From Clostridia bacterium (lineage in GTDB: Bacteria; Bacillota; Clostridia; TANB77; UBA1234), in contig JAFUGC010000003.1 of NCBI GenBank assembly GCA_017469565.1, forward strand, positions 13,656 through 77,655: DNA of 64,000 nucleotides, given 5' to 3'. The position numbers and the translations under genes are program-made. Below the pieces are notes generated by a model. The model made no database searches. It saw only the letters and a program-made list of their open reading frames with translations, and had not been told where the DNA came from. The stretch's first letter is position 1, and each line of letters begins with the position of its first letter. Below are positions 19,064 through 34,877 of the stretch, one piece after another.

Positions 19064-19417
19064 TGGTGGAAATGAGGAGAATCGAACTCCTGTCCGAAAA
19101 TTCTTCCATATCAACTTCTCCGAGTGCAGTTTATCTTTTAAAATTCCCATATTTGAAACGCCGATAAACAGGCTTTTCAAAACAGTAACTTGATAAATAC
19201 CCACTATCTCAAAGTTTTGATAGTTTTGTTTCCACTTTTAGATGACGCTTGCACCCAACGAAAGTGGCACATCAGGGCAAACGAAGCCGCAACTAGGCAG
19301 CTAAAGCAACTTTATTGTTGTTAATTATTTTTATTCTCACATTTTTTAGATGGCCAAGTGAGAATCCATCACTCGCTATTGATACTTCTAAATATCCGTC
19401 GAAACCATTACATCCCC
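19064..19417 (-). ncRNA. ssrA: transfer-messenger RNA
   Basis: On the minus strand it reads 5' GGGGATGTAATGGTTTCGAC ... GGAGTTCGATTCTCCTCATTTCCACCA 3'. The internal tag reading frame ends ..AAC AAC AAT AAA GTT GCT TTA GCT GCC TAG (..NNNKVALAA*). Confidence 0.9.
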
Positions 19418-22632: not shown

Positions 22633-22689
22633 TTGACAAGTAAAAATAAGGTGCTATAATACTACTTGAAAGGTCAAAGAAAGTCAAAG
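22633..22689 (+). promoter_or_regulatory. ctsR operon promoter plus CtsR operator
   Basis: TTGACA - 16 nt - TGcTATAAT, then the direct repeat AGGTCAAAGAAAGTCAAAG (22671..22689), which matches the (A/G)GTCAAA-NAN-(A/G)GTCAAA CtsR box. Confidence 0.8.
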
Positions 22690-22716
22690 TTAAATTTAAA
22701 TCGAGGTGATTGGAAA

Positions 22717-23169
22717 ATGAGACTATCAGAATTAATTGAAGAATATATCAAAAGTATGATGGCAGATAGTGATGAGTTTGTAGAGTTTGGAAGAAATGAA
22801 TTGGCAGAATATTTTCACTGTGTACCATCGCAAATCAATTATGTCATTAGCACACGTTTTAGTCCTGAAAGAGGCTATTATGTAGAAAGCAGAAGGGGTG
22901 GTGGCGGAAACGTCAAAATCAAAAGAATTGATATCACAAAGGATACTTATATTATGCACCTTGTCAATTCTTTAGATAAGAGTTTATCTCAGCAAGAAGC
23001 GGAAATAATGATTCATAATATGATTGATTATCAGGTGATTGATGAGAAGACGGGAAAGCTTTTGAAAGTGGCAACCAATGATAAGGTGCTAGGGCTGCCA
23101 AAGGAATATAGGGATGATGTGAGAACAAGAATTTTTAAGAATATGATTATTAATTTAATCAGTGAGTGA
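22717..23169 (+). CDS. ctsR: class III heat-shock repressor CtsR
   Basis: MRLSELIEEYIK.., Gly-rich loop SRRGGGGNVKI, and its position ahead of mcsA-mcsB-clpC. Confidence 0.9.
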   Translation: MRLSELIEEYIKSMMADSDEFVEFGRNELAEYFHCVPSQINYVISTRFSPERGYYVESRRGGGGNVKIKRIDITKDTYIMHLVNSLDKSLSQQEAEIMIHNMIDYQVIDEKTGKLLKVATNDKVLGLPKEYRDDVRTRIFKNMIINLISE

Positions 23170-23204
23170 GGAATGGGCCTGTGCCTAAAAAGGAGGTAAT
23201 TTTT

Positions 23205-23780
23205 ATGAAATGTCAAAATTGTGGAGAAAATGAAGCAAATGTAAGATATACACAGATTATTAATGGAAAAAAAGAGGAAATTTTTGTTTGTGATAAGTGT
23301 GCCAGTCAGTTAAAGTTGGATATGAATTTTAAGTTTGGATTTGATGATGTCTTTTCATCATTTTTTGGTGAGCCAGCCTTTTTTAAACCTCTTGAAATTT
23401 CTGATGGTTTAGTGTGTGATGTGTGTGGCACCAAGTATGATGACTTTGCAAGTACTGGAATGTTAGGATGTGAAAATTGTTATCGTGTTTTTAGCAGGAG
23501 GCTTGATAACGTCTTGAAGAAACTTCATGGTAATAATAGACATATTGAGGAGGGAGAAAGACAAGTTCCAATGTCATCAGAAATCAGTGCTTCGAAAGAA
23601 AAGAAAAAGAGTTTAGAAGAGGTGATTGCGGAGTTAAAAGAAAAACTAGCAAGTTGTATCAAGAGTGAAGATTATGAGCAGGCCGCGATTATCCGTGACA
23701 AGATAAAAAAATTGGAGAAAAAGTTAAATGATAAAAAATTCAATACCAAAAAATTGGAAGATAGAGAAAGAGGTGAGTGA
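23205..23780 (+). CDS. mcsA: McsA (zinc-finger / UVR-motif activator of McsB)
   Basis: CQNCGE..CDKC and CDVCG..CENC zinc fingers, plus the C-terminal UVR motif EDYEQAAIIRDKIKKLE. Confidence 0.85.
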   Translation: MKCQNCGENEANVRYTQIINGKKEEIFVCDKCASQLKLDMNFKFGFDDVFSSFFGEPAFFKPLEISDGLVCDVCGTKYDDFASTGMLGCENCYRVFSRRLDNVLKKLHGNNRHIEEGERQVPMSSEISASKEKKKSLEEVIAELKEKLASCIKSEDYEQAAIIRDKIKKLEKKLNDKKFNTKKLEDRERGE

Positions 23781-23782
23781 TC

Positions 23783-24784
23783 ATGAGTTGGTATTTGGAA
23801 AATGGGCCTGAATCAGATGTTGTAGTGAGTACTAGGGTAAGGCTTGCAAGAAATATTGTGGGTCACAAGTTTGTACCAAAGGCAAATGGGAAAGAGTTAG
23901 AAGAAGTAATGAATTTATTCAAGGAGAATAAAATAATTCCTGAACTTAGATTTGTAAGGCTTTGTGAATTGGATGAATTGATGCAAAATAGTTTGGTGGA
24001 GAAACATATCATTAGTAGAGATATTTTAAATGAGGAAAATGCAGCACTCTTACTCAATAATGATGAAGATGTTTGTGTGATGATTAATGAAGAGGATCAT
24101 GTTCGTATTCAAGCAATGAAGCCGGGATTGGATTTAAATGGTGCTTTAAAAATGGCCAAAGAAATTGATAGCAAGATTGCAAGCAAAGTGGAATATGCTT
24201 ATAGTGATATTTATGGATATTTGACAGCATGCCCAACCAATGTTGGTACTGGTCTTAGGGCTTCGGTTATGCTTCATTTGCCTGCACTTAGGATTACGGG
24301 TAGACTTGGCAAGATTATGGATGTGATTAGCAAGGTAAACCTAAATGTTCGTGGTGTTTATGGTGAGGGCACAGAAGCAATCGGAGATATGTATCAGGTT
24401 TCTAATAAGGCAAGTTTAGGAATGACAAATGAGGAAATAATTGTTAATGTAAAAGCAATTTCAAAGAAAATTATTGAACAAGAGAGAAAGGCTCGTGAAT
24501 ATTTAAAAGACAGAGGAATTGATTTTGAAGATAAGGTTTATCGTGATTATGGGATATTGACATCGGCAAGAAAGATTTCTTCCGATGAATGTGCTAAATT
24601 GATTTCCATTGTAAAACTTGGTGTGGATATGGGAATTATTAAAGAAATTGATTCTAAAAAAGTGAACGAAATATCAATCATGACAAAGCCTGCCACATTG
24701 CAAAAGTGCTATAAGGAGGCATTGGAACCAAATGAGAGAGATGTGAAAAGGGCAGAGTTAATTAAGAATATTATGAAAGAGTGA
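23783..24784 (+). CDS. mcsB: protein arginine kinase McsB
   Basis: Phosphagen-kinase-like motifs NEEDHVRIQ, CPTNVGTGLRAS and GVYGEG. Confidence 0.9.
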   Translation: MSWYLENGPESDVVVSTRVRLARNIVGHKFVPKANGKELEEVMNLFKENKIIPELRFVRLCELDELMQNSLVEKHIISRDILNEENAALLLNNDEDVCVMINEEDHVRIQAMKPGLDLNGALKMAKEIDSKIASKVEYAYSDIYGYLTACPTNVGTGLRASVMLHLPALRITGRLGKIMDVISKVNLNVRGVYGEGTEAIGDMYQVSNKASLGMTNEEIIVNVKAISKKIIEQERKAREYLKDRGIDFEDKVYRDYGILTSARKISSDECAKLISIVKLGVDMGIIKEIDSKKVNEISIMTKPATLQKCYKEALEPNERDVKRAELIKNIMKE

Positions 24785-24798
24785 GAAAGGAGAATTTT

Positions 24799-27228
24799 AT
24801 GGCAATGATGTATAAGTTTACAAATAGGGCGGAAAAAGCAATTGCGCTTGCCCAAGAGGCTGCAGCGGAACTTGGACATAATTATGTGGGGACAGAGCAT
24901 TTGCTTTGTGGCTTGCTTCGTGAGGGAAGTGGTCTGGCATACAGAGTGCTTACAGACCAAGGAATTACGGACGAGAAAGTAATGAATTTAATTGAAGAGT
25001 TAATTGGAAGAAATGATTCTTTGACAGAGATGCCAACCGGTTTTACACCAAGAACAAAGCGTGTTTTTGAGATTAGCTTTATGGAAGCGAAAAAAATTAA
25101 TAATAATTATATTGGAACGGAGCACTTGTTACTTGGCATTATGAAGGAGGGTGATAGTGTTGCGTCAAGGATTATTCTGGAATTAGGGGTGGATATTCAG
25201 AAATTATTTTCTGACTTAGTAAAAACATTAAATGATGAAAATAGTGGAGGGGCCACCACATCGCATAAGAAACAATCATATCATCAAACGCCAACCTTAA
25301 ATCAGTTTGGTAAGGATTTGACTTCTGATGCTACTTCTGGAAAGCTTGACCCTATTATCGGAAGAGATGATGAAATTGAAAGAATCATTCAGATTTTGAG
25401 TAGAAGAACCAAAAATAATCCATGTTTAATTGGTGAGCCGGGTGTTGGTAAAACAGCAGTGGTAGAAGGACTTGCAGAGAGAATTGTGGAGGGAAATGTT
25501 CCAGAAAATCTAAGGAATAAAAGGGTAGTAACACTGGATGTTTCTAGCATGGTGGCAGGAGCAAAATATCGAGGTGATTTTGAGGAAAGGCTTAAGAAGT
25601 GTTTGCAAGAAATTAAAAAGAGTGGAAATGTGGTTTTGTTTATTGATGAAATTCATACCATTGTTGGTGCCGGTGCAGCAGAAGGTGCCATAGATGCTGC
25701 AAACATTTTAAAACCACTTCTTGCAAGGGCAGAGATTCAAGTAATTGGTGCTACTACATTAAATGAGTATCGAAAATATATTGAGAAAGATGCGGCACTA
25801 GAAAGAAGGTTTCAACCAGTGATTGTGGGTGAGCCAACTACAGAGGAAACAGTTCAAATTTTGAGAGGAATCAGAGATAAATATGAGGCACATCATAAAG
25901 TAAAAATCACAGATGAGGCGATTAAGGCGGCTGTGGATTTATCGTCTAGATATATTAATGATAGGTATTTGCCAGATAAGGCGATTGATATCATGGATGA
26001 GGCAGCATCTAGGGTGAAACTTGCATCGCTTACGGCTCCTAAAGAAGTCAAGAAGATGGAGGAGAAAATTGAGGAAACGGTGAAAGAAAAAGAGGATGCC
26101 ATTAATACGCAAGATTTTGAGAAAGCCGCAAAATTAAGGGATAGAGAACAAAAGGAAAGAGCAAAACTGGAAAAAATGAAGGTGGAATGGGAACAGAAAA
26201 ATCAAATTGCTACAACAGAGGTGTCAGAAAATGAGATTGCTGAAGTAGTTGCAAAATGGACGGGAATCCCAGTGAGTAAAATATCTGAGGCAGAAACAAC
26301 AAGACTTAAGAATTTGGAGCAAGAACTTCATAAGAGGGTAATTGGTCAAGATGATGCCATTGTCGCAGTGAGTAAGGCTGTAAGAAGAGGAAGAGTGGGA
26401 CTTAAGGATCCTAAAAGACCAATTGGTTCCTTTATTTTCTTAGGCCCTACAGGTGTTGGAAAGACAGAGACCTGTAAAGCACTTGCAGAATGTTTATTTG
26501 GTGATGAAAATGCGATGATTCGAATCGACATGTCTGAATACATGGAGAAACATACCGTGGCAAAACTGATTGGCTCACCTCCAGGATATGTTGGTTATGA
26601 AGAGGGCGGCCAATTGACAGAAAAAGTGAGAAGAAAACCTTATTCTGTAATTTTATTTGATGAGATTGAGAAAGCGCATCCGGATGTATTTAATATATTA
26701 CTTCAAATATTGGAGGATGGTAGACTAACAGATTCTCAGGGGAGAACGGTAGATTTTAAAAATACGGTTATCATCATGACATCGAATGTGGGAGCAAGAA
26801 ATATCACAGATCATAAGGCAATTGGATTTAATAGTGCAGAAGAAAAGAAGAAAAACTATGAACAAATTAAGAGCGATGTGATGAGTGAACTTAAGAAGGA
26901 ATTTAGACCAGAGTTCTTGAATAGAGTGGATGAGATGATTGTATTTAAACAACTAGATGAAACTGAAATTGAAAAGATCGTGGACATTATGGTTAAGAAT
27001 TCTATTGCAAGACTTCAGGATAGAGAGATTAAAGTGTCTGTTACAAATTCTATGAAGAAACATATTGCGAAAAAAGGATTTGACCCGTTATATGGTGCGC
27101 GTCCGCTAAGAAGGGCAATCCAATCTTTGGTGGAGGATAAGCTGGCAGAAGGTATCTTGGATGGAAAGATTAAAGATGGAGAGAGTGTAACGTTGGATTT
27201 TGCAAAAGATGAGGTTGTGATTAAGTAA
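24799..27228 (+). CDS. clpC: ATP-dependent Clp protease ATP-binding subunit ClpC
   Basis: Clp_N repeats, two AAA+ modules (GEPGVGKT, GPTGVGKT), and UVR motif QDFEKAAKLRDRE. Confidence 0.95.
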   Translation: MAMMYKFTNRAEKAIALAQEAAAELGHNYVGTEHLLCGLLREGSGLAYRVLTDQGITDEKVMNLIEELIGRNDSLTEMPTGFTPRTKRVFEISFMEAKKINNNYIGTEHLLLGIMKEGDSVASRIILELGVDIQKLFSDLVKTLNDENSGGATTSHKKQSYHQTPTLNQFGKDLTSDATSGKLDPIIGRDDEIERIIQILSRRTKNNPCLIGEPGVGKTAVVEGLAERIVEGNVPENLRNKRVVTLDVSSMVAGAKYRGDFEERLKKCLQEIKKSGNVVLFIDEIHTIVGAGAAEGAIDAANILKPLLARAEIQVIGATTLNEYRKYIEKDAALERRFQPVIVGEPTTEETVQILRGIRDKYEAHHKVKITDEAIKAAVDLSSRYINDRYLPDKAIDIMDEAASRVKLASLTAPKEVKKMEEKIEETVKEKEDAINTQDFEKAAKLRDREQKERAKLEKMKVEWEQKNQIATTEVSENEIAEVVAKWTGIPVSKISEAETTRLKNLEQELHKRVIGQDDAIVAVSKAVRRGRVGLKDPKRPIGSFIFLGPTGVGKTETCKALAECLFGDENAMIRIDMSEYMEKHTVAKLIGSPPGYVGYEEGGQLTEKVRRKPYSVILFDEIEKAHPDVFNILLQILEDGRLTDSQGRTVDFKNTVIIMTSNVGARNITDHKAIGFNSAEEKKKNYEQIKSDVMSELKKEFRPEFLNRVDEMIVFKQLDETEIEKIVDIMVKNSIARLQDREIKVSVTNSMKKHIAKKGFDPLYGARPLRRAIQSLVEDKLAEGILDGKIKDGESVTLDFAKDEVVIK

Positions 27229-27349: not shown

Positions 27350-27958
27350 GTGATCACCGAAAAGAATAAAGAAAATATCATAAAAGGATTAGAGGCTGAG
27401 CTTGAAAATGGCACATTTTATCAAGTGAATCAGTGGGATGTGCTTGCAAACACTGACACGGATTTTTATCATGATGTTTTTGATTTATCTACATCAAAAA
27501 GTTATGCTACCCCTGAGTTTAAGGGTGTTGGGCTGTTTAGACCGCTTGTAAGTAATGAGTTTAATCCTTTAAATAGCACGGTTTATAATTATAAGGCAAG
27601 CTATGAGGCACCGGTACATGGAATGGCGTTTACTGGTAAGAATGGAGAGTATGTGGAGTCACATTATCTTTCCGGATTGAATTTAGGAGCAAGCATCACC
27701 AATGAGTTTGGTACAGTTACAGTGGAAGCGCCGGTTACTCATATAGATATGAAAATTAATAATATGGGTACGGATGATAATGTTCAAGTAAATATGGCTG
27801 ATATTCTACCAAATACCCAAACTGCTAATGTGATAGATTTTGCATCGGTTCCACAAGAACTTGCACTTGCCAAAAGAAATCATTGGAAAGATATTCTATT
27901 TATGGATGTGGATATTATAGGCAGTGTAAAGAAACTTTGGAAAAATATTTCTGTATAG
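27350..27958 (+). CDS. hypothetical protein
   Basis: 202-aa ORF with a GTG start after AGAGGGGG. No motif recognised. Confidence 0.45.
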   Translation: MITEKNKENIIKGLEAELENGTFYQVNQWDVLANTDTDFYHDVFDLSTSKSYATPEFKGVGLFRPLVSNEFNPLNSTVYNYKASYEAPVHGMAFTGKNGEYVESHYLSGLNLGASITNEFGTVTVEAPVTHIDMKINNMGTDDNVQVNMADILPNTQTANVIDFASVPQELALAKRNHWKDILFMDVDIIGSVKKLWKNISV

Positions 27959-27983: not shown

Positions 27984-28018
27984 AAGTGTGTAAGTGATTT
28001 TACTTACACACTTTTTTT
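27984..28018 (+). terminator. rho-independent terminator
   Basis: AAGTGTGTAAGT-GATTTT-ACTTACACACTT followed by T5. Confidence 0.85.
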
Positions 28019-28024
28019 GCTTTT

Positions 28025-28054
28025 GATGCTTTCGGAAGGTGTCCCCAAAAACAT
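28025..28054. repeat. solo copy of the GGAAGGTGTCCCC repeat arm found at 5869..6100
   Basis: GATGCTTTCGGAAGGTGTCCCCAAAAACAT compared with GATGCTTTTGGAAGGTGTCCCCAAATGCAT (6019..6048); about 27 of 30 positions identical by eye. Confidence 0.8.
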
Positions 28055-28066
28055 TTTTGAAATTTG

Positions 28067-28095
28067 TTGCTTTTTATGTTAATCCCTGATAAAAT
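28067..28095 (+). promoter_or_regulatory. sigma-A-type promoter of the PK-like/PurA-like operon
   Basis: TTGCTT - 17 nt - TAAAAT. Confidence 0.55.
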
Positions 28096-28148
28096 GAATC
28101 CGCAATTGAATTGGTTTTGGGTAGTCTTTGTTTTTTGTTAAATGAAGA

Positions 28149-29093
28149 ATGAAAAAGGAGGAATGTTTTTTGAAACGGGATTGTAGACTTATTGCAACGC
28201 TACCTTCATTGAGTAATTTGAAAAAGGTGCAAGAGGTTTTTGAGAGTGATTGTGTAGATGAAGTAAGGTTTAATACGGGAGTGCATGTGCCTTTTGCGGC
28301 GGAAGAAGCGCTGGATATTTTACAAAGGTTGTCACTGAAGTATGATAAGAAACTTTGGATTGATGTGAAGGGCAGGCAGCTTAGGATTAGCAAGTGGGCG
28401 GATCCTTTGTATTCTTGCATTGAACTCAATCACCATGTGGAGGTTTTATATCCGGCAGAGGTTTGTTTTAGAAATGGTGATCGGGTGAGAATTGCCCATA
28501 TCAAAGATGGAAATAAACTTTTTGTGGAACCGCTGCCCAAAGAGGCGCTTGGTGCAGGGCAGTCTGTGAATATTATTGGGAGAGATGTTGAGATTGATGG
28601 TTACTTAACGGAGAAAGATAAAGAGTACTTAACTGCTTGCGCTAAGCTGGGTATGCCTTGGATTATGGCTTCTTTTGTAGAAGAGTTCTTGGATTTCATG
28701 GAGATTTTGACGCTCCAACCGAATGCTCAAATTATGGCTAAAATTGAGTCACTCAAGGGAATGGAGCTTGTGACAAGGCATCCATCTGTACTTATGGAGA
28801 AGTTTAACATTTTTTCTCTAATGGCTGCGAGAGATGACCTGTATATTCAGACAGGTGAAAATTGCAGCATGTTAAAGCATTTGAAAGCAATTGTTGATGT
28901 GGACAGTGGGGCAGTTTGTGCATCCCGGATTTTCCCTTCTTTGGAGAGAAGGCAAACGCCTGAGTTTGCAGATTATGCGGACTTGGAACTCATGTATAGC
29001 ATGGGCTATCGGAGGTTCATGCTGTGTGATAACATATGCAATTACCATTTTGAAAAAGCAATCAAAGCATGGAAGGAGTTTCAGCATGGATAG
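28149..29093 (+). CDS. pyruvate-kinase-like TIM-barrel protein lacking the C-terminal regulatory domain
   Basis: Collinear with PK barrel motifs: RLIATLPS (cf. KIVCTIGP), VRFNTGVH (cf. ARLNFSHG), IDVKGRQLRI (cf. LDTKGPEIR), LTEKDKEYL, IMASFVE (cf. IAASFVR), IMAKIESLKG (cf. IIAKIENQEG), MAARDDL (cf. VARGDLG). The likely true start is TTG 28170, 8 nt after AAGGAGG. Confidence 0.65.
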   Translation: MKKEECFLKRDCRLIATLPSLSNLKKVQEVFESDCVDEVRFNTGVHVPFAAEEALDILQRLSLKYDKKLWIDVKGRQLRISKWADPLYSCIELNHHVEVLYPAEVCFRNGDRVRIAHIKDGNKLFVEPLPKEALGAGQSVNIIGRDVEIDGYLTEKDKEYLTACAKLGMPWIMASFVEEFLDFMEILTLQPNAQIMAKIESLKGMELVTRHPSVLMEKFNIFSLMAARDDLYIQTGENCSMLKHLKAIVDVDSGAVCASRIFPSLERRQTPEFADYADLELMYSMGYRRFMLCDNICNYHFEKAIKAWKEFQHG

Positions 29094-30549
29094 TTATGTA
29101 TTATGTGGAATGCAGTTCGGTGATGAAGGAAAAGGTACGTTTGTTGACTATATGTCACATAGAGAAGACGCGGATGCCGTTGTCCGGTATAACGGAGGTT
29201 CACAGGCATCGCATACGGTGGTGACTCCAAGTGGAACGCTTCATAAGTTTAGTCAGTTAGGTTCCGGAATGTTTTTGGAAAATTGTCACACATATATTAC
29301 GGAAAACACTGTGGTGAACCTGGATAATCTTATGGTGGAGTTGAAGGTTTTTTCGGAAAAAACTGGTATTTCTGTTTCTGAACTCATCAATCGGATTCAC
29401 ATTCATGAGAATTGTTTTGTGGTAACGCCTTATCACAAGCTGCTGAACAAGCTAAGAGAATTGTCATTGGGAGAAAACCGCAGAGGAACGGTTGGCACTG
29501 GTGTGAGTGAGGTCCGGTATGTGTTGGAAGAGTCTCAAAATTTTCCGCTTGAGCCATCCTTAGGGGTTCAAGTAAAAGATATTTTTGATTCTCGTGGTAT
29601 TCGTCCACTCCTTGCTGGTTTCATGGGGCTTCATGAGTATGTGAGTGCGTTCTATCAGGAAAATCAGGAAGTGATTTGGAAAAATACTCCTGAGGAGATG
29701 AAAGAGGGTTTACAGAAAGAGATAGATTCTTTGCTTTCTGGACAAGTTTTTAATCTTACTAACATTTATAGAAGATACTTTAATACGGTACCACGAGAGT
29801 TTAACCTGAAAAGATGTATTTATAGTACTTATGAACAGTCTTTGCACGCAAACTGTAAGAAGGTGATTTTTGAGGGGTCACAGGGACTTTTGATTGATGG
29901 TAAATATGGCATCAAGCCGAATACCACTTTTCTGGATACCACCAATCAGTTTGCTTTGAGGATAAGTAGGTACACGGACCATGTGACAAAGGTTGGTATC
30001 GTGAAGGCTTTTAGCTCTCGGCATGGACCAGGTATATTTCCCACGGAATCAGAGGAAGTGAGCAGTAAGATTCAAGACCCAAATCAGGAGGAATCTTTCT
30101 GGAATGGTAAGATTCGTTTTGGGTGGCTGGATGTGGTGCTGCTCCGGTATGCACAGCACATCAACCAGGTGGATGAGCTTTATTTGTCTTCCTTGGACCT
30201 GCTGGATGATTTTGAGGAACTCAAAATTTGTGTTGGTTATATATACGATGGCAAGGTAGATGAAGAATTCAATCGGACTTTCGAATATGTTGATATGTTG
30301 GACGGTAGGAAGTATATTGATGATATTGTGATGCCCAGTGACAGGCTGGGAGAGTACTTGAAACTTTGCGTTCCGGATTACATGTGCATCAGAGGCTGGA
30401 AGAAGGATATTTCTCAGGTGACTGATCAGGAGGAACTGCCAGTTCGGTGTAGAAATTACATTGGCTGGCTGGGACGTCTTATGAATCTTCCTGTTACGGT
30501 GGTGTCTGTGGGACCTACTCGGGAAAACAAGATACGAATGGATTCTTAG
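29086..30549 (+). CDS. divergent adenylosuccinate synthetase (PurA) family protein
   Basis: Start ATG 29086 (GGAAGGAG RBS) overlaps the upstream stop by 8 nt. PurA motifs present are QFGDEGKG, RYNGGSQASHT, FEGSQGLLID, VKAFSSRHGPGIFPTE, FGWLD, SSLDLLD and VSVGPTRE. The Arg-rich loop before GWLD is degenerate (WNGKIRF). Confidence 0.8.
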   Translation: MDSYVLCGMQFGDEGKGTFVDYMSHREDADAVVRYNGGSQASHTVVTPSGTLHKFSQLGSGMFLENCHTYITENTVVNLDNLMVELKVFSEKTGISVSELINRIHIHENCFVVTPYHKLLNKLRELSLGENRRGTVGTGVSEVRYVLEESQNFPLEPSLGVQVKDIFDSRGIRPLLAGFMGLHEYVSAFYQENQEVIWKNTPEEMKEGLQKEIDSLLSGQVFNLTNIYRRYFNTVPREFNLKRCIYSTYEQSLHANCKKVIFEGSQGLLIDGKYGIKPNTTFLDTTNQFALRISRYTDHVTKVGIVKAFSSRHGPGIFPTESEEVSSKIQDPNQEESFWNGKIRFGWLDVVLLRYAQHINQVDELYLSSLDLLDDFEELKICVGYIYDGKVDEEFNRTFEYVDMLDGRKYIDDIVMPSDRLGEYLKLCVPDYMCIRGWKKDISQVTDQEELPVRCRNYIGWLGRLMNLPVTVVSVGPTRENKIRMDS

Positions 30550-30572
30550 AGAGAAGAAGAGGAGGATTATGC

Positions 30573-31175
30573 ATGAAAGATAAGCTTTATGAAGAGATTG
30601 ACCGGCGTATTACCACTGGTCAAAAGGTGAATGTGCTGATTGCTGGGATGACCTGTTCCGGAAAGAGCACTCTTGCCAGAGAAATTCAGGAGCATTATGT
30701 GTTTGGAAAGCATCCTAAACAGGTGTCTATTATTTCTCAGGATTGTTACTTTAAAAATTTAGGATTGATTCCTAGAAATAAAGGCGGCTATTTGATGGAT
30801 TCTCTTTATGCCTTTCATGCAGATGAGTACCGGGCTCATGCACAGTATCTGACTCAACATGGAACGGTGAGAGTGCCTCAGTATGACATTGCCAGAAATA
30901 AAAGGACGGCGGAATACACTAAAATTGAAAATGGAGATATTAATATCTTTGAGGGTTTGCATAGCATCCGGATATTAAGTGGACTGTGGCATAATGTAAA
31001 AGTCTATTTGGATACTGATGTAGAAACCTGCCTGGAAAGAAGGATTGCAAGGGATACGTCTTTATATGACGTGCCGGAGGAGCGCATTCGTGAGTACTGG
31101 GCGGAGTGTATTATGCCCTTAAGTAGAGAGTTCATTTTCCCGCAAAAGGAAATGGCGGATTGGATTATCAGCTAA
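30573..31175 (+). CDS. uridine kinase / phosphoribulokinase-family P-loop nucleoside kinase
   Basis: Walker A GMTCSGKST, plus SQDCYF, FEGLHS and RRIARDT, collinear with Udk. Confidence 0.75.
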   Translation: MKDKLYEEIDRRITTGQKVNVLIAGMTCSGKSTLAREIQEHYVFGKHPKQVSIISQDCYFKNLGLIPRNKGGYLMDSLYAFHADEYRAHAQYLTQHGTVRVPQYDIARNKRTAEYTKIENGDINIFEGLHSIRILSGLWHNVKVYLDTDVETCLERRIARDTSLYDVPEERIREYWAECIMPLSREFIFPQKEMADWIIS

Positions 31176-31189
31176 AGGGGGAAATGCTT

Positions 31190-32236
31190 ATGACGGTTAA
31201 GGAAATTTATGAAAGGCTGCTGAGGGCCAAACGGCCGGTGGATTTTTTTGGTGAGGCTACCACGGAAGAGGAGCTGAAAAGGTTCTATAAGGATTTTGCC
31301 AAAAAGGTTCATCCGGATTTAGTGCCTGACTGTGACAGGTATCTTGCCGGTGAGGCGTTTTCTGTGCTGAATAGACTTTATCATTTGGGTCTTGCTGAGT
31401 TCCAACAGGGCATTTATGGCGTAATTGACCAGGTGCAACTGTATTCGCATCAGTCGCCGCTGTTTGAAATCACGGCTGGAGGAAAGCGGTATCAGTTTTT
31501 TGAGAATGTGTTTGAAGGCGAGGTTGCCTATCTTTTTAAGGGGAAGTCGGCCGATGATGATATTGTGTATCTGAAAGTAGCGATTGACCCAGCAGACAAT
31601 GAACTGATTGACACGGAGTATGATGTGCTTTCCACGCTTAGGCATCAGTCTTTTCCATATGTGGAACAGAAAATTCAGGTGAATGATACCAGGGCCATTT
31701 TGATGCGAGAGGTGAAGGGCATTACTATGCTGGAGCTTTTGGAGCAATATCCGCATGGTGTGCCTGCAGAGCATGTGATGTGGATGCTGGAGCGCCTGCT
31801 GAGTGCTGTGGGGTATCTGCATGCTAACTTTGTGGTGCATGGGAATATCAAGCCGGAAAATATCATCATTAACAAGGAAAATCATAATGTTTCCTTGGTT
31901 GGTTTTTCTTTCTGTATTCCTAAGGCGAATACCCCAGAGGCAAAGTACAAGATTCAAAATGATAATTATTCTGCTCCTGAGGTAAGTGCGGATGCCACGG
32001 TTTATCCGGCATCGGATGTATATTCGGTTGGCAAAATTGCGATTGCGCTTTTAGGAGGTGCCGTTTCTTCTTCTGGAATGCCCATTTCCGTGAATGCGAA
32101 AGTGAGGGCGTTTATCCGGAAAATGGTGAATCCTTCTATGATGGATAGACCAGACGATGCCTGGAAACTCTGGACGGAGCTGATTGAGCTCAGAACGGAA
32201 GTTTTTGGAACTCAGCGGTTTCAAAAATTGGACTGA
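31190..32236 (+). CDS. J-domain protein fused to a Ser/Thr-kinase-fold pseudokinase
   Basis: J-domain with the HPD tripeptide (FAKKVHPDL). The kinase fold has VYLKVAI (beta3 Lys), SAPEV and SDVYSVG, but the catalytic loop reads VHGNIKPEN (HRD Asp replaced by Asn) and the DFG position reads VGFSF (Asp lost). Start ATG 31190 is 8 nt after AAGGGGG. Confidence 0.75.
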   Translation: MTVKEIYERLLRAKRPVDFFGEATTEEELKRFYKDFAKKVHPDLVPDCDRYLAGEAFSVLNRLYHLGLAEFQQGIYGVIDQVQLYSHQSPLFEITAGGKRYQFFENVFEGEVAYLFKGKSADDDIVYLKVAIDPADNELIDTEYDVLSTLRHQSFPYVEQKIQVNDTRAILMREVKGITMLELLEQYPHGVPAEHVMWMLERLLSAVGYLHANFVVHGNIKPENIIINKENHNVSLVGFSFCIPKANTPEAKYKIQNDNYSAPEVSADATVYPASDVYSVGKIAIALLGGAVSSSGMPISVNAKVRAFIRKMVNPSMMDRPDDAWKLWTELIELRTEVFGTQRFQKLD

Positions 32237-32292
32237 GAGTGTGTTGGTTGAACATGACGCATGAAACAAATTAGTATAAGGAGGAAATCACA

Positions 32293-33243
32293 ATGGGTGG
32301 AAGCAGCTATGACCGGGATGTGTACAGTGGTAGCTCTAGTTCAGGCTGGGGTGCTAGTTCTTATTCAGCAATGAAGATGGGCAGTAGCACTTTGGATAGC
32401 TCCCTGAGGGCTAATGGTAAGATTCTGAAAAGTACAAGCAAGAATCCTATTATTGTGGTGCTGGATGTGACTGGCTCCAACATTGATTTTGCCAGATTGG
32501 TTTATGACAAGATGCCGATGTTTTATGGGCAGATTGAGCAGAAGGGGTATTTGGATGACTTTGATATTGCTTTTTGTGCGGTGGGTGATGCCTACACGGA
32601 TGATTATCCTTTGCAGATAGGTGATTTTGCAAAGGGGATTGCTTTGGACTCCCAACTGGAAAAGTTAGTGCTGGAGGGTGCTGGCGGAGGCCAGAGGAAG
32701 GAGTCTTACGAGCTTGCCGCTTATTATCTGTATAAGAATGCGGAGTTTCCACCGGGCAGTAAGCCTCTCATCTTCTTTATTGGAGATGAGGCACCTTATC
32801 CTAAGGTGAATGAGGTTCAGGCTCAGGAGTTTGGCATTGACTGCACTGAAGGTAATGTGGAGCCTTTTGAGCTTTTGCGGAAGAAGGTAAATGACAATGT
32901 CTTTATGCTCTTGAACAAGTATTGCAGTAGGAGTTTTGAAAGTGACATTACAGAGGCGTGGACCACGCGGTTGGCGCCAGAACATGTGATTAAGATTCAG
33001 GAGGAAAAGGCGATTGTGGACCTGATGCTGGGCATTATCTCCATGGTTTCGAATGCGAGAACGCTAGAGACTTATAAGGTGGATATGCTGGATAGAGGGC
33101 AGACACAGGAGCGGATTGCCGGTGTTTCGGAATCGCTTCAGAATTTTTCAAAGGTCACATCGATTGTGCCTGTGAAGGTGTCTGGGATAATTCCCAAGGC
33201 TTCCGGTGGGAAGCAAAGCACTCAGAAGGGCAAACGCCTGTAA
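32293..33243 (+). CDS. von Willebrand factor A (vWA) domain protein
   Basis: MIDAS-like IIVVLDVTGS, later FFIGDEAPY, and the beta-alpha-beta periodicity of vWA. TAAGGAGGAA RBS. Confidence 0.7.
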   Translation: MGGSSYDRDVYSGSSSSGWGASSYSAMKMGSSTLDSSLRANGKILKSTSKNPIIVVLDVTGSNIDFARLVYDKMPMFYGQIEQKGYLDDFDIAFCAVGDAYTDDYPLQIGDFAKGIALDSQLEKLVLEGAGGGQRKESYELAAYYLYKNAEFPPGSKPLIFFIGDEAPYPKVNEVQAQEFGIDCTEGNVEPFELLRKKVNDNVFMLLNKYCSRSFESDITEAWTTRLAPEHVIKIQEEKAIVDLMLGIISMVSNARTLETYKVDMLDRGQTQERIAGVSESLQNFSKVTSIVPVKVSGIIPKASGGKQSTQKGKRL

Positions 33244-33253
33244 GATGAATTTT

Positions 33254-33287
33254 GGTGGTACACTTATTTTAGTGTACCACCTTTTTT
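33254..33287 (+). terminator. rho-independent terminator ending the five-gene operon
   Basis: GGTGGTACAC-TTATTTTA-GTGTACCACC followed by T6. Confidence 0.85.
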
Positions 33288-33329
33288 GGCACTTTTTGTT
33301 GTTTTTTGATGCTTTTTCTATTTATGTGC

Positions 33330-33358
33330 TTGACATAATGATGGGCAAAATATATAAT
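33330..33358 (+). promoter_or_regulatory. consensus sigma-A promoter for the 473-aa orphan
   Basis: TTGACA - 17 nt - TATAAT. Confidence 0.7.
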
Positions 33359-33410
33359 AACAAGGCTAAATATGTTACTTTAGGACCAACCATTATTAAG
33401 GAGGTAAAAT

Positions 33411-34832
33411 ATGGGTATTCGAAACTGGTTAAACCGCAGGCGTGAGATGGAAGACGGACTGGATGATGCGGCTGTTACTAGTTCAACTGGTTCAACCACT
33501 TCAACCGCTTCAACCGTGAATGACACTTCTTGTCATGTGAAGGTTCCCGAGAAGGTGGAGAATCTTCCGCAGATAGAGCGTGAGGCACTTTACCGGTGGA
33601 GCAAAGTGTTTTTGGGAGAAGTGGCGAGTGCAGATTATACCAAGCGGTTTGTGAAGTCCCTGAATATCAGCCCGTATCATATGGGAGATACTTATTGGAA
33701 TGTTAAACAGGAAGAAATGGAAAGGATTGGCTGTCTGACGGAGTGCTACCGGGCGTGCATCAGCAGAGTCTTTGCAGAGAATAATTTTCTGGCCGGCCCT
33801 GAGATGCTGGAAGAACTCATACGGGTTGTCACGGCAAATCTGGTAAGTCGCATGCTTCAGGAAACAGATATCACTTATGATTATGATCTGTCTGAGTATG
33901 AGAAAGAGATTTTTCAGTTTGGTTCAGAGCTTTTGAAGGCGGTTTATTGGGTGGCCACCGAGAATGTGGTGGATTTTGTTAGTCTTTACGAGAAAATCAA
34001 TCACGGTATTGATTTCAGGCTGAAAAGCATGTATGGGCCGGAGATTACATACCGGTATACTTACCTTATTCCGGCGGAGTATCTGTTTGAACTTCCTGAT
34101 TTTGTTTATGAAAAGAGATTGGGCAGTATTCAAGACAGGATGGAGGCTGTTCATGATGTGGAAGCCATCATTAGTGGAGTTCTTTCTCGGGATAATGATA
34201 TTGGTGATGGCGCAGTATACCTTTCCAAGCTTAAGGAATTCATGATAAAAGAAAAGGAGTTTCTGACACTGGATTTTGAGCATATTCTGTTCCAGTATTT
34301 TGAAGAGTTTAAAGAGGAGAACGAATTAACGTCCTATAACTTTTATGCTTATGGGATACATGACCTGATTGCTGCTATTCCGCAATATTTCCCGGAAATG
34401 ATTGTGGAGTCTTTTGAGTATCAGCTGGCAATGATGCAGCGTGTTTATGTATGCCAAGATGAAGTGGAGATGTTTGAAGAGGATCTGGTGGATCTGTATG
34501 AACGCATCGTCATTTATCGGAATTATAGAGCGGAAGATTTTCAGGTAACTGATTCTGATTCCTGGAAAGCAACTATTAGTAGTTTTTTTGAACTGGGGCT
34601 TTCGGGGTATGCACTGACCAGAATTTCGGATTTGCTCACGGATGGTTTAGGCGTGAGCAGAGATGAAGTGGAAGCGTACATTGAGAGTCTGACCCGGGAT
34701 TATTTGGATGATTGCTACTGGATTGGTACGGATGAGGAGAGCCTCATTCATATGATTCGGCTGCTGTCTAATCCTGTTGTTTACCGTGTGATTGAAGAAG
34801 AGAAGCCGGCCATCATTGACTGCTTCTGGTAA
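33411..34832 (+). CDS. hypothetical acidic, probably all-helical protein (473 aa) linked to the island
   Basis: AAGGAGG RBS. It has the same GC-rich composition and CGG usage as the preceding operon. It has an S/T-rich linker near the N-terminus and no recognisable motif. Confidence 0.55.
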   Translation: MGIRNWLNRRREMEDGLDDAAVTSSTGSTTSTASTVNDTSCHVKVPEKVENLPQIEREALYRWSKVFLGEVASADYTKRFVKSLNISPYHMGDTYWNVKQEEMERIGCLTECYRACISRVFAENNFLAGPEMLEELIRVVTANLVSRMLQETDITYDYDLSEYEKEIFQFGSELLKAVYWVATENVVDFVSLYEKINHGIDFRLKSMYGPEITYRYTYLIPAEYLFELPDFVYEKRLGSIQDRMEAVHDVEAIISGVLSRDNDIGDGAVYLSKLKEFMIKEKEFLTLDFEHILFQYFEEFKEENELTSYNFYAYGIHDLIAAIPQYFPEMIVESFEYQLAMMQRVYVCQDEVEMFEEDLVDLYERIVIYRNYRAEDFQVTDSDSWKATISSFFELGLSGYALTRISDLLTDGLGVSRDEVEAYIESLTRDYLDDCYWIGTDEESLIHMIRLLSNPVVYRVIEEEKPAIIDCFW

Positions 34833-34841
34833 GAATTTTGT

Positions 34842-34877
34842 GGTGGAGGAAAACTTGTTTCCTCCGCCATTTTTTTG
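34842..34877 (+). terminator. rho-independent terminator
   Basis: GGTGGAGGAAAC-TT-GTTTCCTCCGCC followed by ATTTTTTT. Confidence 0.85.

Follow-up and report, generated by a model that had tools for sequence, protein, structure and literature searches.

The 64,000-nt stretch of a Clostridia bacterium genome analyzed here (contig JAFUGC010000003.1, positions 13,656 to 77,655; hereafter the window) carries, at 28025-34877, an island of six open reading frames (ORFs), g1 to g6. The first five encode, in order, a pyruvate kinase (PK)-like protein, a relative of adenylosuccinate synthetase (PurA), a kinase of the uridine kinase (Udk) type, a J-domain pseudokinase and a protein with a von Willebrand factor A (vWA) fold. 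Such genes travel together in bacteria, archaea, plasmids and lytic phages, and they form an undescribed mobile, cross-domain module that probably makes or restores an unusual nucleotide. The recurrent core is the vWA and PurA-like pair, usually with the J-pseudokinase gene upstream; the PK-like, Udk-like and NUDIX genes and one deaminase gene are lineage-specific accessories. The island itself is best explained as a horizontally acquired copy of this conserved module together with one unrelated orphan gene, g6.

Co-occurrence of the genes across genomes was the main test set by a first-pass annotation of the window, and the genes proved to be strongly co-conserved. In a cellular census, one genome per GTDB species was searched with a g5 profile, which yielded 38 loci, and the other module genes were located by tblastn with the window proteins. 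A PurA-like gene was found in 34 of these loci, and the remaining four are truncated where their contigs stop. The same five-gene order, between unrelated flanks, surrounds three PurA-like homologs at 46-65 % identity. The complete order PK-PurA-Udk-JK-vWA (JK being the J-pseudokinase) is found in uncultured Clostridia, Bacilli and 'Tenericutes' metagenome-assembled genomes. A second order, JK-vWA-PK-PurA without Udk, occurs in Methanosarcinales, Woesearchaeota, Leptospiraceae, Spirochaetes and a Verrucomicrobia contig, and vWA-PK-PurA without a detectable JK occurs in Myxococcales and Haliangiales. A metagenome scan with the vWA alignment added 80 loci, in contigs with differing flanks, and the further orders JK-vWA-PK-Udk-PurA, vWA-PK-PurA and vWA-PurA. 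When ORFs were clustered for each locus and the genes within two positions of the core were inspected, no other family recurred beyond lineage-level synteny, and Pfam assigned unrelated functions to ten further neighbours. Local variants were also seen: a Methanosarcinales locus (L030 9740-11977) has two tandem vWA paralogs, and another locus (L019 11106-11729) has a second Udk-like gene directly after the vWA gene.

The module is also carried by viruses and plasmids. About 200 records of Cluster C (Bixzunavirus) mycobacteriophages were matched by tblastn with g5 and g2. For example, phage QBert has three genes annotated as 'serine/threonine kinase' (gp253), 'hypothetical' (gp254) and 'PurA-like adenylosuccinate synthetase' (gp255); gp253 has a J domain with its HPD motif and lacks the HRD Asp, and gp255 has the signature of the PurA-like clade described below. 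Families exist in PHROGs for the J-kinase, vWA and PurA-like proteins, the vWA family being listed as 'unknown function'. Plasmids of Rhodococcus and Tsukamurella carry the order JK-vWA-PurA-NUDIX, and pAtS4e of Allorhizobium ampelinum has JK-vWA-PurA beside a divergently transcribed NUDIX gene. On pAtS4e (L051 8240-12633), genes for an AAA ATPase, a DUF5682 protein and a DUF4132 protein come right after JK-vWA-PurA, with a type VI secretion VgrG gene upstream; this may represent a distinct cluster of conflict type. Large Rhizobium and Vibrio phages have the vWA-PurA pair among nucleotide- and NAD-related genes, including those for phosphoribosyltransferase (PRTase), NMNAT/NUDIX, NADAR and ribonucleotide reductase (RNR). 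In Vibrio phage phiKT1024 (L050 3023-3667) a NADAR-domain gene lies near the pair and a TROVE/Ro60-like gene about 2 kb downstream, and in one metagenome contig (L103, 8959-9573) a NADAR-domain gene lies two genes downstream of vWA.

Other than on plasmids and in phages, nucleotide-related accessories were found in cellular loci and as gene fusions. A NUDIX gene is directly upstream of JK in Leptospiraceae, and in one archaeal locus (L033) a gene for a cytidine deaminase-like protein overlaps the PurA stop codon. Several longer vWA members have a C-terminal U-box, an E3 ligase domain, and one has a NUDIX domain (P0259, P0260, P0268, P0282, P0283, P0290, P0263; loci L055 and L057). These fusions keep the N-terminal MGG and are on transcript-like or clearly eukaryotic contigs, one of them an MMETSP transcript; genes for a mitochondrial carrier, for L35Ae, for a chromo-domain protein and for eukaryotic SelB are among their neighbours. 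The accessories found away from the window, that is NUDIX, the deaminase and the vWA-NUDIX fusion, point to nucleotide chemistry.

The second gene, g2, encodes a full-length member of the adenylosuccinate synthetase family (Adenylsucc_synt PF00709, 269 bits against a cut-off of 27, residues 5-482), yet its scores against the PurA equivalog models were under cut-off (NF002223, 234.8 vs 402; TIGR00184, 213.4 vs 395.6). Its active site was compared by aligning 35 cellular homologs and four phage or plasmid copies to E. coli PurA, whose residue roles served as the reference, with the numbering confirmed at D13, K16, H41, Q224, R303 and D333. The GDEGKG P-loop is kept in 35/35 family members, and D13, K16, H41, Q224, T239 and D333 are invariant, so that the GTP-site and catalytic residues of PurA are all present. 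The aspartate loop is not: T300-T301-G-R303-R-R305 is replaced by (F/Y)-(W/Y)-(Q/N)-G, and one residue is deleted, in every one of the 35 cellular and four phage or plasmid copies; V273 has become an invariant His. Among the ligands of the 5'-phosphate of inosine monophosphate (IMP), N38 is Q or H, T129 is V or C in most copies and R143' is G, P or S, which leaves only T239. The first-pass annotation had described a PurA homolog with intact GTP and catalytic motifs and an altered substrate loop, and the alignment agrees. The signature is common to cellular, plasmid and phage copies and marks a distinct clade that almost certainly does not use aspartate as substrate; such an active site cannot be that of a housekeeping PurA. 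Two identities for g2 were rejected, orthologous PurA (EC 6.3.4.4) from the equivalog scores and the lost aspartate loop, and PurZ from 51.2 bits against the 300 of model NF038379, in a match limited to the N-terminal 114 residues.

The other two enzymes also belong to Pfam families of housekeeping proteins. The PK barrel model PF00224 matched g1 with E 2e-10 (40.6 bits, cut-off 30), and a profile of eight g1-family members matched 102 PDB chains, all of them pyruvate kinases, at E-values down to 2e-15. The catalytic motifs of the barrel (RxN, DxKGxxxR, K-I-E and the ARGDL-type Asp) are represented by the family-invariant RxN, DxKGRQLR, KIES and MAARDDL. The protein consists of the A barrel and a short B domain without the C-terminal regulatory domain (no PK_C match), and thus differs from a full-length pyruvate kinase; it scored 40.8 against the 306 required by the equivalog TIGR01064. 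Its ORF opens at ATG 28149, but translation most likely starts at TTG 28170, since there is an AGGAGG 8 nt ahead of it, matches to homologs start at residue 7-8 and the TTG is the start chosen in public gene calls. Of the 314-aa barrel without a C domain that had been proposed, the fold and the missing domain stand, and the length most likely becomes 307 aa.

The assignment of g3 to the uridine kinase/PRK family was borne out by PF00485 (E 4e-17, 63 bits, cut-off 22), with UCK2, UCK1 and Udk as best PDB matches at E 1e-16. Its score against the Udk equivalog NF004018 was 99 vs 180, and it has Asn at the position aligned to UCK2 His117. The Udk-like gene is a lineage-specific accessory: it was found in Firmicutes-type loci and in two others (L070 and L071), and not in the archaeal, leptospiral, phage or plasmid versions.

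The fourth protein combines a J domain with a kinase fold that has lost its catalytic residues, as had been read from the sequence at the outset. It matches Pkinase in Pfam at E 6e-20 and has HGN for HRD and GFS for DFG, so that both Asp residues of an active eukaryote-type kinase are absent. Across the family the HRD position reads HGN, HGS, HGA or HTA in all copies, the DFG Asp is kept only in some non-Firmicutes copies, and the VAIK Lys, the alphaC Glu and the catalytic-loop Asn are kept. JAK JH2 and HER3-type pseudokinases show a related pattern, with HGN or HRN for HRD and the ATP-site Lys and Glu kept. The single-sequence Pfam score of the g4 J domain was 21.1, below the gathering value of 27.8. 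At the profile level, 78 J-domain chains were matched by the g4 N-terminus, at E-values down to 4e-7 and with J domains alone among the 60 shown, and hhalign gave 92 % against E. coli DnaJ. Helices II-III with the HPD motif are present, and HPD is invariant in 20/20 aligned N-termini of the family. The PDB matches include auxilin J domains, and GAK unites a kinase fold with a J domain. Auxilin and GAK, like JAK JH2 and HER3, are nevertheless eukaryotic signalling or uncoating proteins without a PurA or vWA operon partner, and the J domain of GAK is C-terminal where that of g4 is N-terminal.

Sequence models gave no handle on g5, which had no match in Pfam, vWA and TerY models included, and whose profile had none among PDB sequences. 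The vWA assignment made earlier was upheld by structure prediction: the AlphaFold2 (AF2) model (pLDDT 83, pTM 0.83) matched integrin beta-I, alpha-I and vWF A3 domains in Foldseek at E 3e-6 to 3e-5 with probability 1.0. The metal ion-dependent adhesion site (MIDAS) is conserved as D58-x-T60-G61-S62 (DxTGS), D99 and D165. Outside this core, AF2 shows a disordered first 19 residues, and the protein also has a disordered Ser-rich linker and a basic C-terminus, KGKRL. Across Firmicutes-type loci, identity to the window copy is 53-73 % for g5 vs 38-65 % for the PurA-like protein; g5 is the hallmark of the module and, with g4, one of its two most conserved proteins. At 50 % identity the vWA family falls into 1,601 clusters, and most of the distant representatives whose context was looked up lie on short contigs. 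Among 20 diverse members from bacteria, archaea, phages, plasmids and eukaryotes, Met1-Gly2 are the only residues outside the vWA core that are invariant. Next to them comes an aromatic/acidic motif that is also conserved (in the window MGGxSYDRDVY, in QBert MGSGAWDSYTY, in eukaryotes MGGDYYDRDV). Of 148 family representatives, 92 start with MGG. Some members, from Haliangiales and Myxococcales (L041, L042) and elsewhere (P0294, P0339-P0341), are about 475-500 aa long; a large insertion interrupts the domain in its middle, so that these proteins match the profile in two stretches.

Taken together, these features suggest a pathway in which an oxo-base nucleoside or nucleotide would be supplied by lineage-specific helpers, the Udk-like kinase here and NUDIX or a deaminase elsewhere. 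The PurA-like enzyme would activate the base carbonyl with GTP, and an amine other than aspartate would displace the phosphate, giving an N-substituted or directly aminated nucleotide. No PurB-like lyase was found in any module locus. The PK-like enzyme could re-phosphorylate a diphosphate from phosphoenolpyruvate (PEP), either to regenerate GTP or to bring the product to the triphosphate, and the vWA protein and the J-pseudokinase would act together as a regulator or scaffold, engaging the host's Hsp70 (DnaK) and gating the PurA-like enzyme. We hold this explanation as a whole tentatively, at slightly less than an even chance. A host-virus or stress conflict is the most likely setting, given that the module is mobile and occurs in cells as well as in phages; it may serve either side.

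Several observations weigh against this explanation. Every chemical step is inferred from residue conservation. With three of the four IMP-phosphate ligands altered, the substrate may not be a mononucleotide at all. No Hsp70 gene occurs among the scanned or clustered neighbours, which leaves the J domain as the sole pointer to DnaK, and no RNA element or riboswitch that might offer a ligand clue was found upstream of g1 (no Rfam match at E <= 1). Some wider-family vWA members have no PurA-like gene nearby (L103, L108, L116, L124, L137, L138), so the link between the two is strong and not absolute. The flanks show no consistent defence-island signal: when 112 immediate neighbours from the GTDB-species loci were compared with PADLOC and Pfam, the matches were scattered (one DpdF, generic ABC and AAA proteins, and a few resolvase, Mob and TnpV genes). 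Finally, both the PK-like and the Udk-like gene are missing from the phage and plasmid versions, and hence are not essential to the core reaction. The three enzymes that had been proposed to act in series are thus not the conserved unit, Udk being confined to Firmicutes-type and a few other loci and the PK-like gene missing as just described, and the expected location in defence islands found no support.

Other explanations were weighed against the same evidence. The simplest, that ordinary purA, pyk and udk genes happen to lie beside a kinase and a vWA gene, is effectively refuted. The Pfam families are indeed housekeeping ones, and g2 is publicly annotated as 'adenylosuccinate synthetase'; however, all three equivalog scores are far under their cut-offs, the aspartate loop is lost, the PK-like protein has no C domain, the base composition does not fit the genome, further copies of these genes are present on Rhodococcus plasmids and in phages, and their order with vWA and J-pseudokinase is conserved across phyla. 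That these are not housekeeping enzymes is thus well supported by the scores and by the altered PurA active site. A role closer to known metabolism is that the PurA-like enzyme restores nucleotide pools by aminating IMP directly, for example with ammonia, while NUDIX converts ITP to IMP and the PK-like enzyme raises ADP or GDP to the triphosphate. This would serve phages in countering ATP-deaminating or ATP-destroying defences, and cells after stress. The loss of the aspartate-binding Arg and Thr residues with D13, H41 and Q224 kept would fit a small nucleophile, a lyase would be unneeded, the triad is present in lytic mycobacteriophages, and phage copies lie amid nucleotide/NAD-salvage or anti-defence-type genes (PRTase, NMNAT/NUDIX, NADAR, RNR). 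However, conservation of T129, R143 and N38 would be expected with IMP as substrate and is not seen, Udk-family enzymes are pyrimidine nucleoside kinases, and a simple salvage enzyme needs no vWA protein and J-pseudokinase; we consider this reading unlikely.

The conserved N-terminus of the vWA protein raises a different possibility, also unlikely in our view, that the PurA-like enzyme covalently joins a purine or pyrimidine nucleotide base to the vWA N-terminal Gly after Met removal, and that the J-pseudokinase with DnaK, or the U-box ligase in eukaryotes, acts on the modified protein. The invariant Met-Gly with its aromatic/acidic motif, the frequency of MGG starts, the disordered first 19 residues followed by a Ser-rich tether, the recurrent adjacency of the vWA and PurA-like genes, the aromatic replacement of the aspartate loop (W/Y plus the invariant His) in every copy and the lack of a PurB-like lyase in any locus would all be consistent with it. 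The case is purely inferential, however. With equal likelihood, this conserved stretch might dock onto the pseudokinase, onto DnaK or onto the MIDAS of the vWA protein itself, or, in eukaryotes, serve as a myristoylation or Gly-degron signal, and nucleotide-supply accessories suit a small-molecule pathway just as well. The fuller version, a new protein-nucleotide conjugation system with the base on the vWA Gly, handling by Hsp70, U-box wiring in eukaryotes and use by both phages and cells in conflict, would be slightly less probable still. Proteins with vWA domains are commonly paired with P-loop NTPases, and g2 could instead act mainly as a switch or remodeller that is powered by GTP and works with a vWA adaptor in the manner of MoxR-vWA pairs; the J-pseudokinase would bring in Hsp70, and the nucleotide enzymes would do no more than feed GTP. 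Pairings of this kind (discussed in PMC7159879), the J domain here and the eukaryotic U-box fusions, which point to Hsp70-linked protein handling, and a PK-like enzyme able to regenerate GTP would favour such a chaperone machine. A switch would not need the carbonyl-phosphorylation residues D13, H41 and Q224, which are invariant together with T239, and the NUDIX and deaminase accessories argue for substrate chemistry; we regard it as quite improbable.

Several described systems resemble the module in part. The Z-genome pathway (PurZ/MazZ/DatZ) is similar in having a divergent PurA-family enzyme in phages, an NTP pyrophosphatase that supplies the NMP (MazZ there, and NUDIX in several loci here) and a non-canonical nucleotide product, which here is proposed. 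Unlike the present clade, which has lost the aspartate loop and has no lyase, PurZ keeps aspartate and needs PurB, and its loci lack the vWA protein, the J-pseudokinase and the PK-like gene. Canonical PurA shares the fold, GDEGKG, D13, K16, H41, Q224, T239 and the guanine-specific D333, and differs at the aspartate loop, V273, N38, T129 and R143; the present clade, moreover, is always linked to a vWA gene. The TerY-kinase-PP2C triads of ter clusters, for which Anantharaman and colleagues reportedly proposed, in 2012, a link to nucleoside-like metabolites, also encode a cytoplasmic vWA protein beside a eukaryote-type kinase-fold protein. The analogy with them, drawn in the first-pass annotation, breaks down on the defining parts: the clustered loci have no PP2C, TerD/TerB/TelA, PRTase or ATP-grasp genes, the kinase is a J-domain pseudokinase and g5 has no Pfam vWA or TerY match. 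Pfam on the 112 neighbours of GTDB-species loci and on selected neighbours elsewhere gave no PP2C among the recurrent families and no ter gene, and clustering of both locus sets gave no further recurrent family; one SpoIIE/PP2C-type domain was seen, in a seven-transmembrane receptor two genes upstream, in L036 only. GTPase-centred ternary and MoxR-vWA conflict systems pair a vWA adaptor with a P-loop NTPase, with Hsp70/DnaJ in some (Kaur et al. 2020, PMC7159879), and that paper mentions neither adenylosuccinate synthetase nor pyruvate kinase. The likeness is confined to that pairing; the module has no MoxR AAA+, TRAFAC GTPase, effector or EAD domains, and its NTPase is a PurA-family ligase with intact catalytic residues.

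No system model of PADLOC-DB v2.0.0 was matched: g4 gave generic kinase-domain matches only (MkoA, PD-T4-6, PglW), g1 and g3 marginal generic ones, and g2, g5 and g6 none. In the literature searched, with subscription-only papers and newer defence databases outside its scope, no paper linked adenylosuccinate synthetase or PurA with vWA, J-domain proteins, pseudokinases or conflict systems, and the phrase 'PurA-like adenylosuccinate synthetase' occurred in genome announcements only. The initial impression that no described system has this gene set therefore holds for the PADLOC models and the literature searched. Since the closest known systems also differ in their defining parts, we rate the module as a new kind of system. 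A defence role is possible. The suggested anti-phage function survives as one of several such roles, complicated by the presence of the same triad in lytic mycobacteriophages.

In the window, the six ORFs lie between the terminator of the clpC-g0 region and ylxM-ffh, at the positions first reported (Table 1). The G+C content is 0.431 in 28025-34877 vs 0.356 in the remaining window, third-position G+C (GC3) is 0.42-0.53 in island genes vs 0.23-0.38 outside, and CGG Arg codons number 32 in g1-g6 vs 0 in clpC, g0, ylxM, ffh, rpsP and rimM. The higher G+C and CGG usage that had been noted by eye are thus real, and because G+C, GC3 and CGG usage are foreign, the island appears to be of horizontal origin. 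The layout ctsR-mcsA-mcsB-clpC-g0-island-ylxM-ffh is common to seven same-species contigs from other samples. There was no insertion polymorphism, as 7/7 contigs with the same upstream gene hold the island or end within it, and no integration scars were seen (no direct repeats in the flanks and no tRNA close by).

Table 1. Features of the island in window coordinates
Feature	Position	Strand	Size	Description
Terminator-like hairpin, island left edge	27984-28013	+		13-pair stem, then T run
Candidate operon promoter	28067-28095	+		TTGCTT 28067-28072, 17 nt, TAAAAT 28090-28095; TG just upstream of -10 (extended -10)
g1	28149/28170-29093	+	314/307 aa	PK-like
g2	29086-30549	+	487 aa	PurA-like
g3	30573-31175	+	200 aa	Udk/PRK-like
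g4	31190-32236	+	348 aa	J-domain pseudokinase
g5	32293-33243	+	316 aa	vWA fold
Terminator-like hairpin, end of five-gene operon	33254-33281	+		11 pairs (6 G-C), then T run
g6 promoter	33330-33358	+		12/12 consensus (sigma-70)
g6	33411-34832	+	473 aa	acidic orphan
g6 terminator-like hairpin	34840-34870	+

The left hairpin ends the ctsR-mcsA-mcsB-clpC-g0 region. The five module genes are packed tightly, as described before, with an 8-nt overlap of g1 and g2, then gaps of 23, 14 and 56 nt, and a terminator-like hairpin after g5. The promoter proposed for them is present in the sequence; it is weak, with 3/6 and 5/6 consensus matches, and under the threshold of a consensus scan, so that it is a plausible candidate for the g1 promoter. 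A T-rich 26-nt sequence (…TTTTGATGCTTT) occurs at 28007-28032 and again at 33290-33315, with 77 % identity between the copies. Both copies are just past a terminator, upstream of g1 and after g5, and upstream of the next promoter; they could be a shared regulatory site or merely low-complexity sequence.

Although g6 has its own consensus promoter and terminator, as first noted, and an island-like composition (G+C 0.437, 9 CGG codons), its proposed membership of the system was rejected. This acidic, helical-looking protein has no homolog except itself among 5.8 billion protein clusters, no match in L001-L043 (43 loci) or in L044-L050, which come from phages and plasmids, and no Pfam, PADLOC, NCBIfam or PHROG match. 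On the other side of the module, g0 (27350-27958) lies between clpC and the island, encodes 202 aa, has native composition and is present in all same-species contigs; it has no Pfam, NCBIfam, PADLOC or PHROG match and no match in L001-L050. The island directly follows a class III heat-shock operon, ctsR-mcsA-mcsB-clpC, which spans about 22666-27228 of the window when the genes of L139 are mapped onto it. The adjacency is probably coincidental, as the flanks differ in other loci, yet notable given the J-domain component. Elsewhere in the window, ARAGORN called a putative tmRNA gene at 19064-19417 on the minus strand, with a short, unusual tag peptide, VETKLSKL.

The module is common to gut Firmicutes, archaea, soil actinobacterial plasmids and a very well sampled group of lytic mycobacteriophages, and it is open to test in cultured systems, namely Bixzunavirus phages on M. 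smegmatis, Rhodococcus jostii RHA1, Tsukamurella and Allorhizobium ampelinum S4. If the proposed explanation is true, it would add an unrecognised branch of nucleotide chemistry, in which a PurA-type enzyme has moved off aspartate and is tied to a vWA protein and an Hsp70-recruiting pseudokinase. The activity of this enzyme would be new, and so, possibly, would a modified nucleotide or a protein modification that it makes. Genes in hundreds of phage genomes that now bear only the labels 'PurA-like', 'Ser/Thr kinase' or 'hypothetical' would gain a function, and prokaryotic and eukaryotic vWA proteins, the U-box and NUDIX fusions included, would be linked to Hsp70-centred control.

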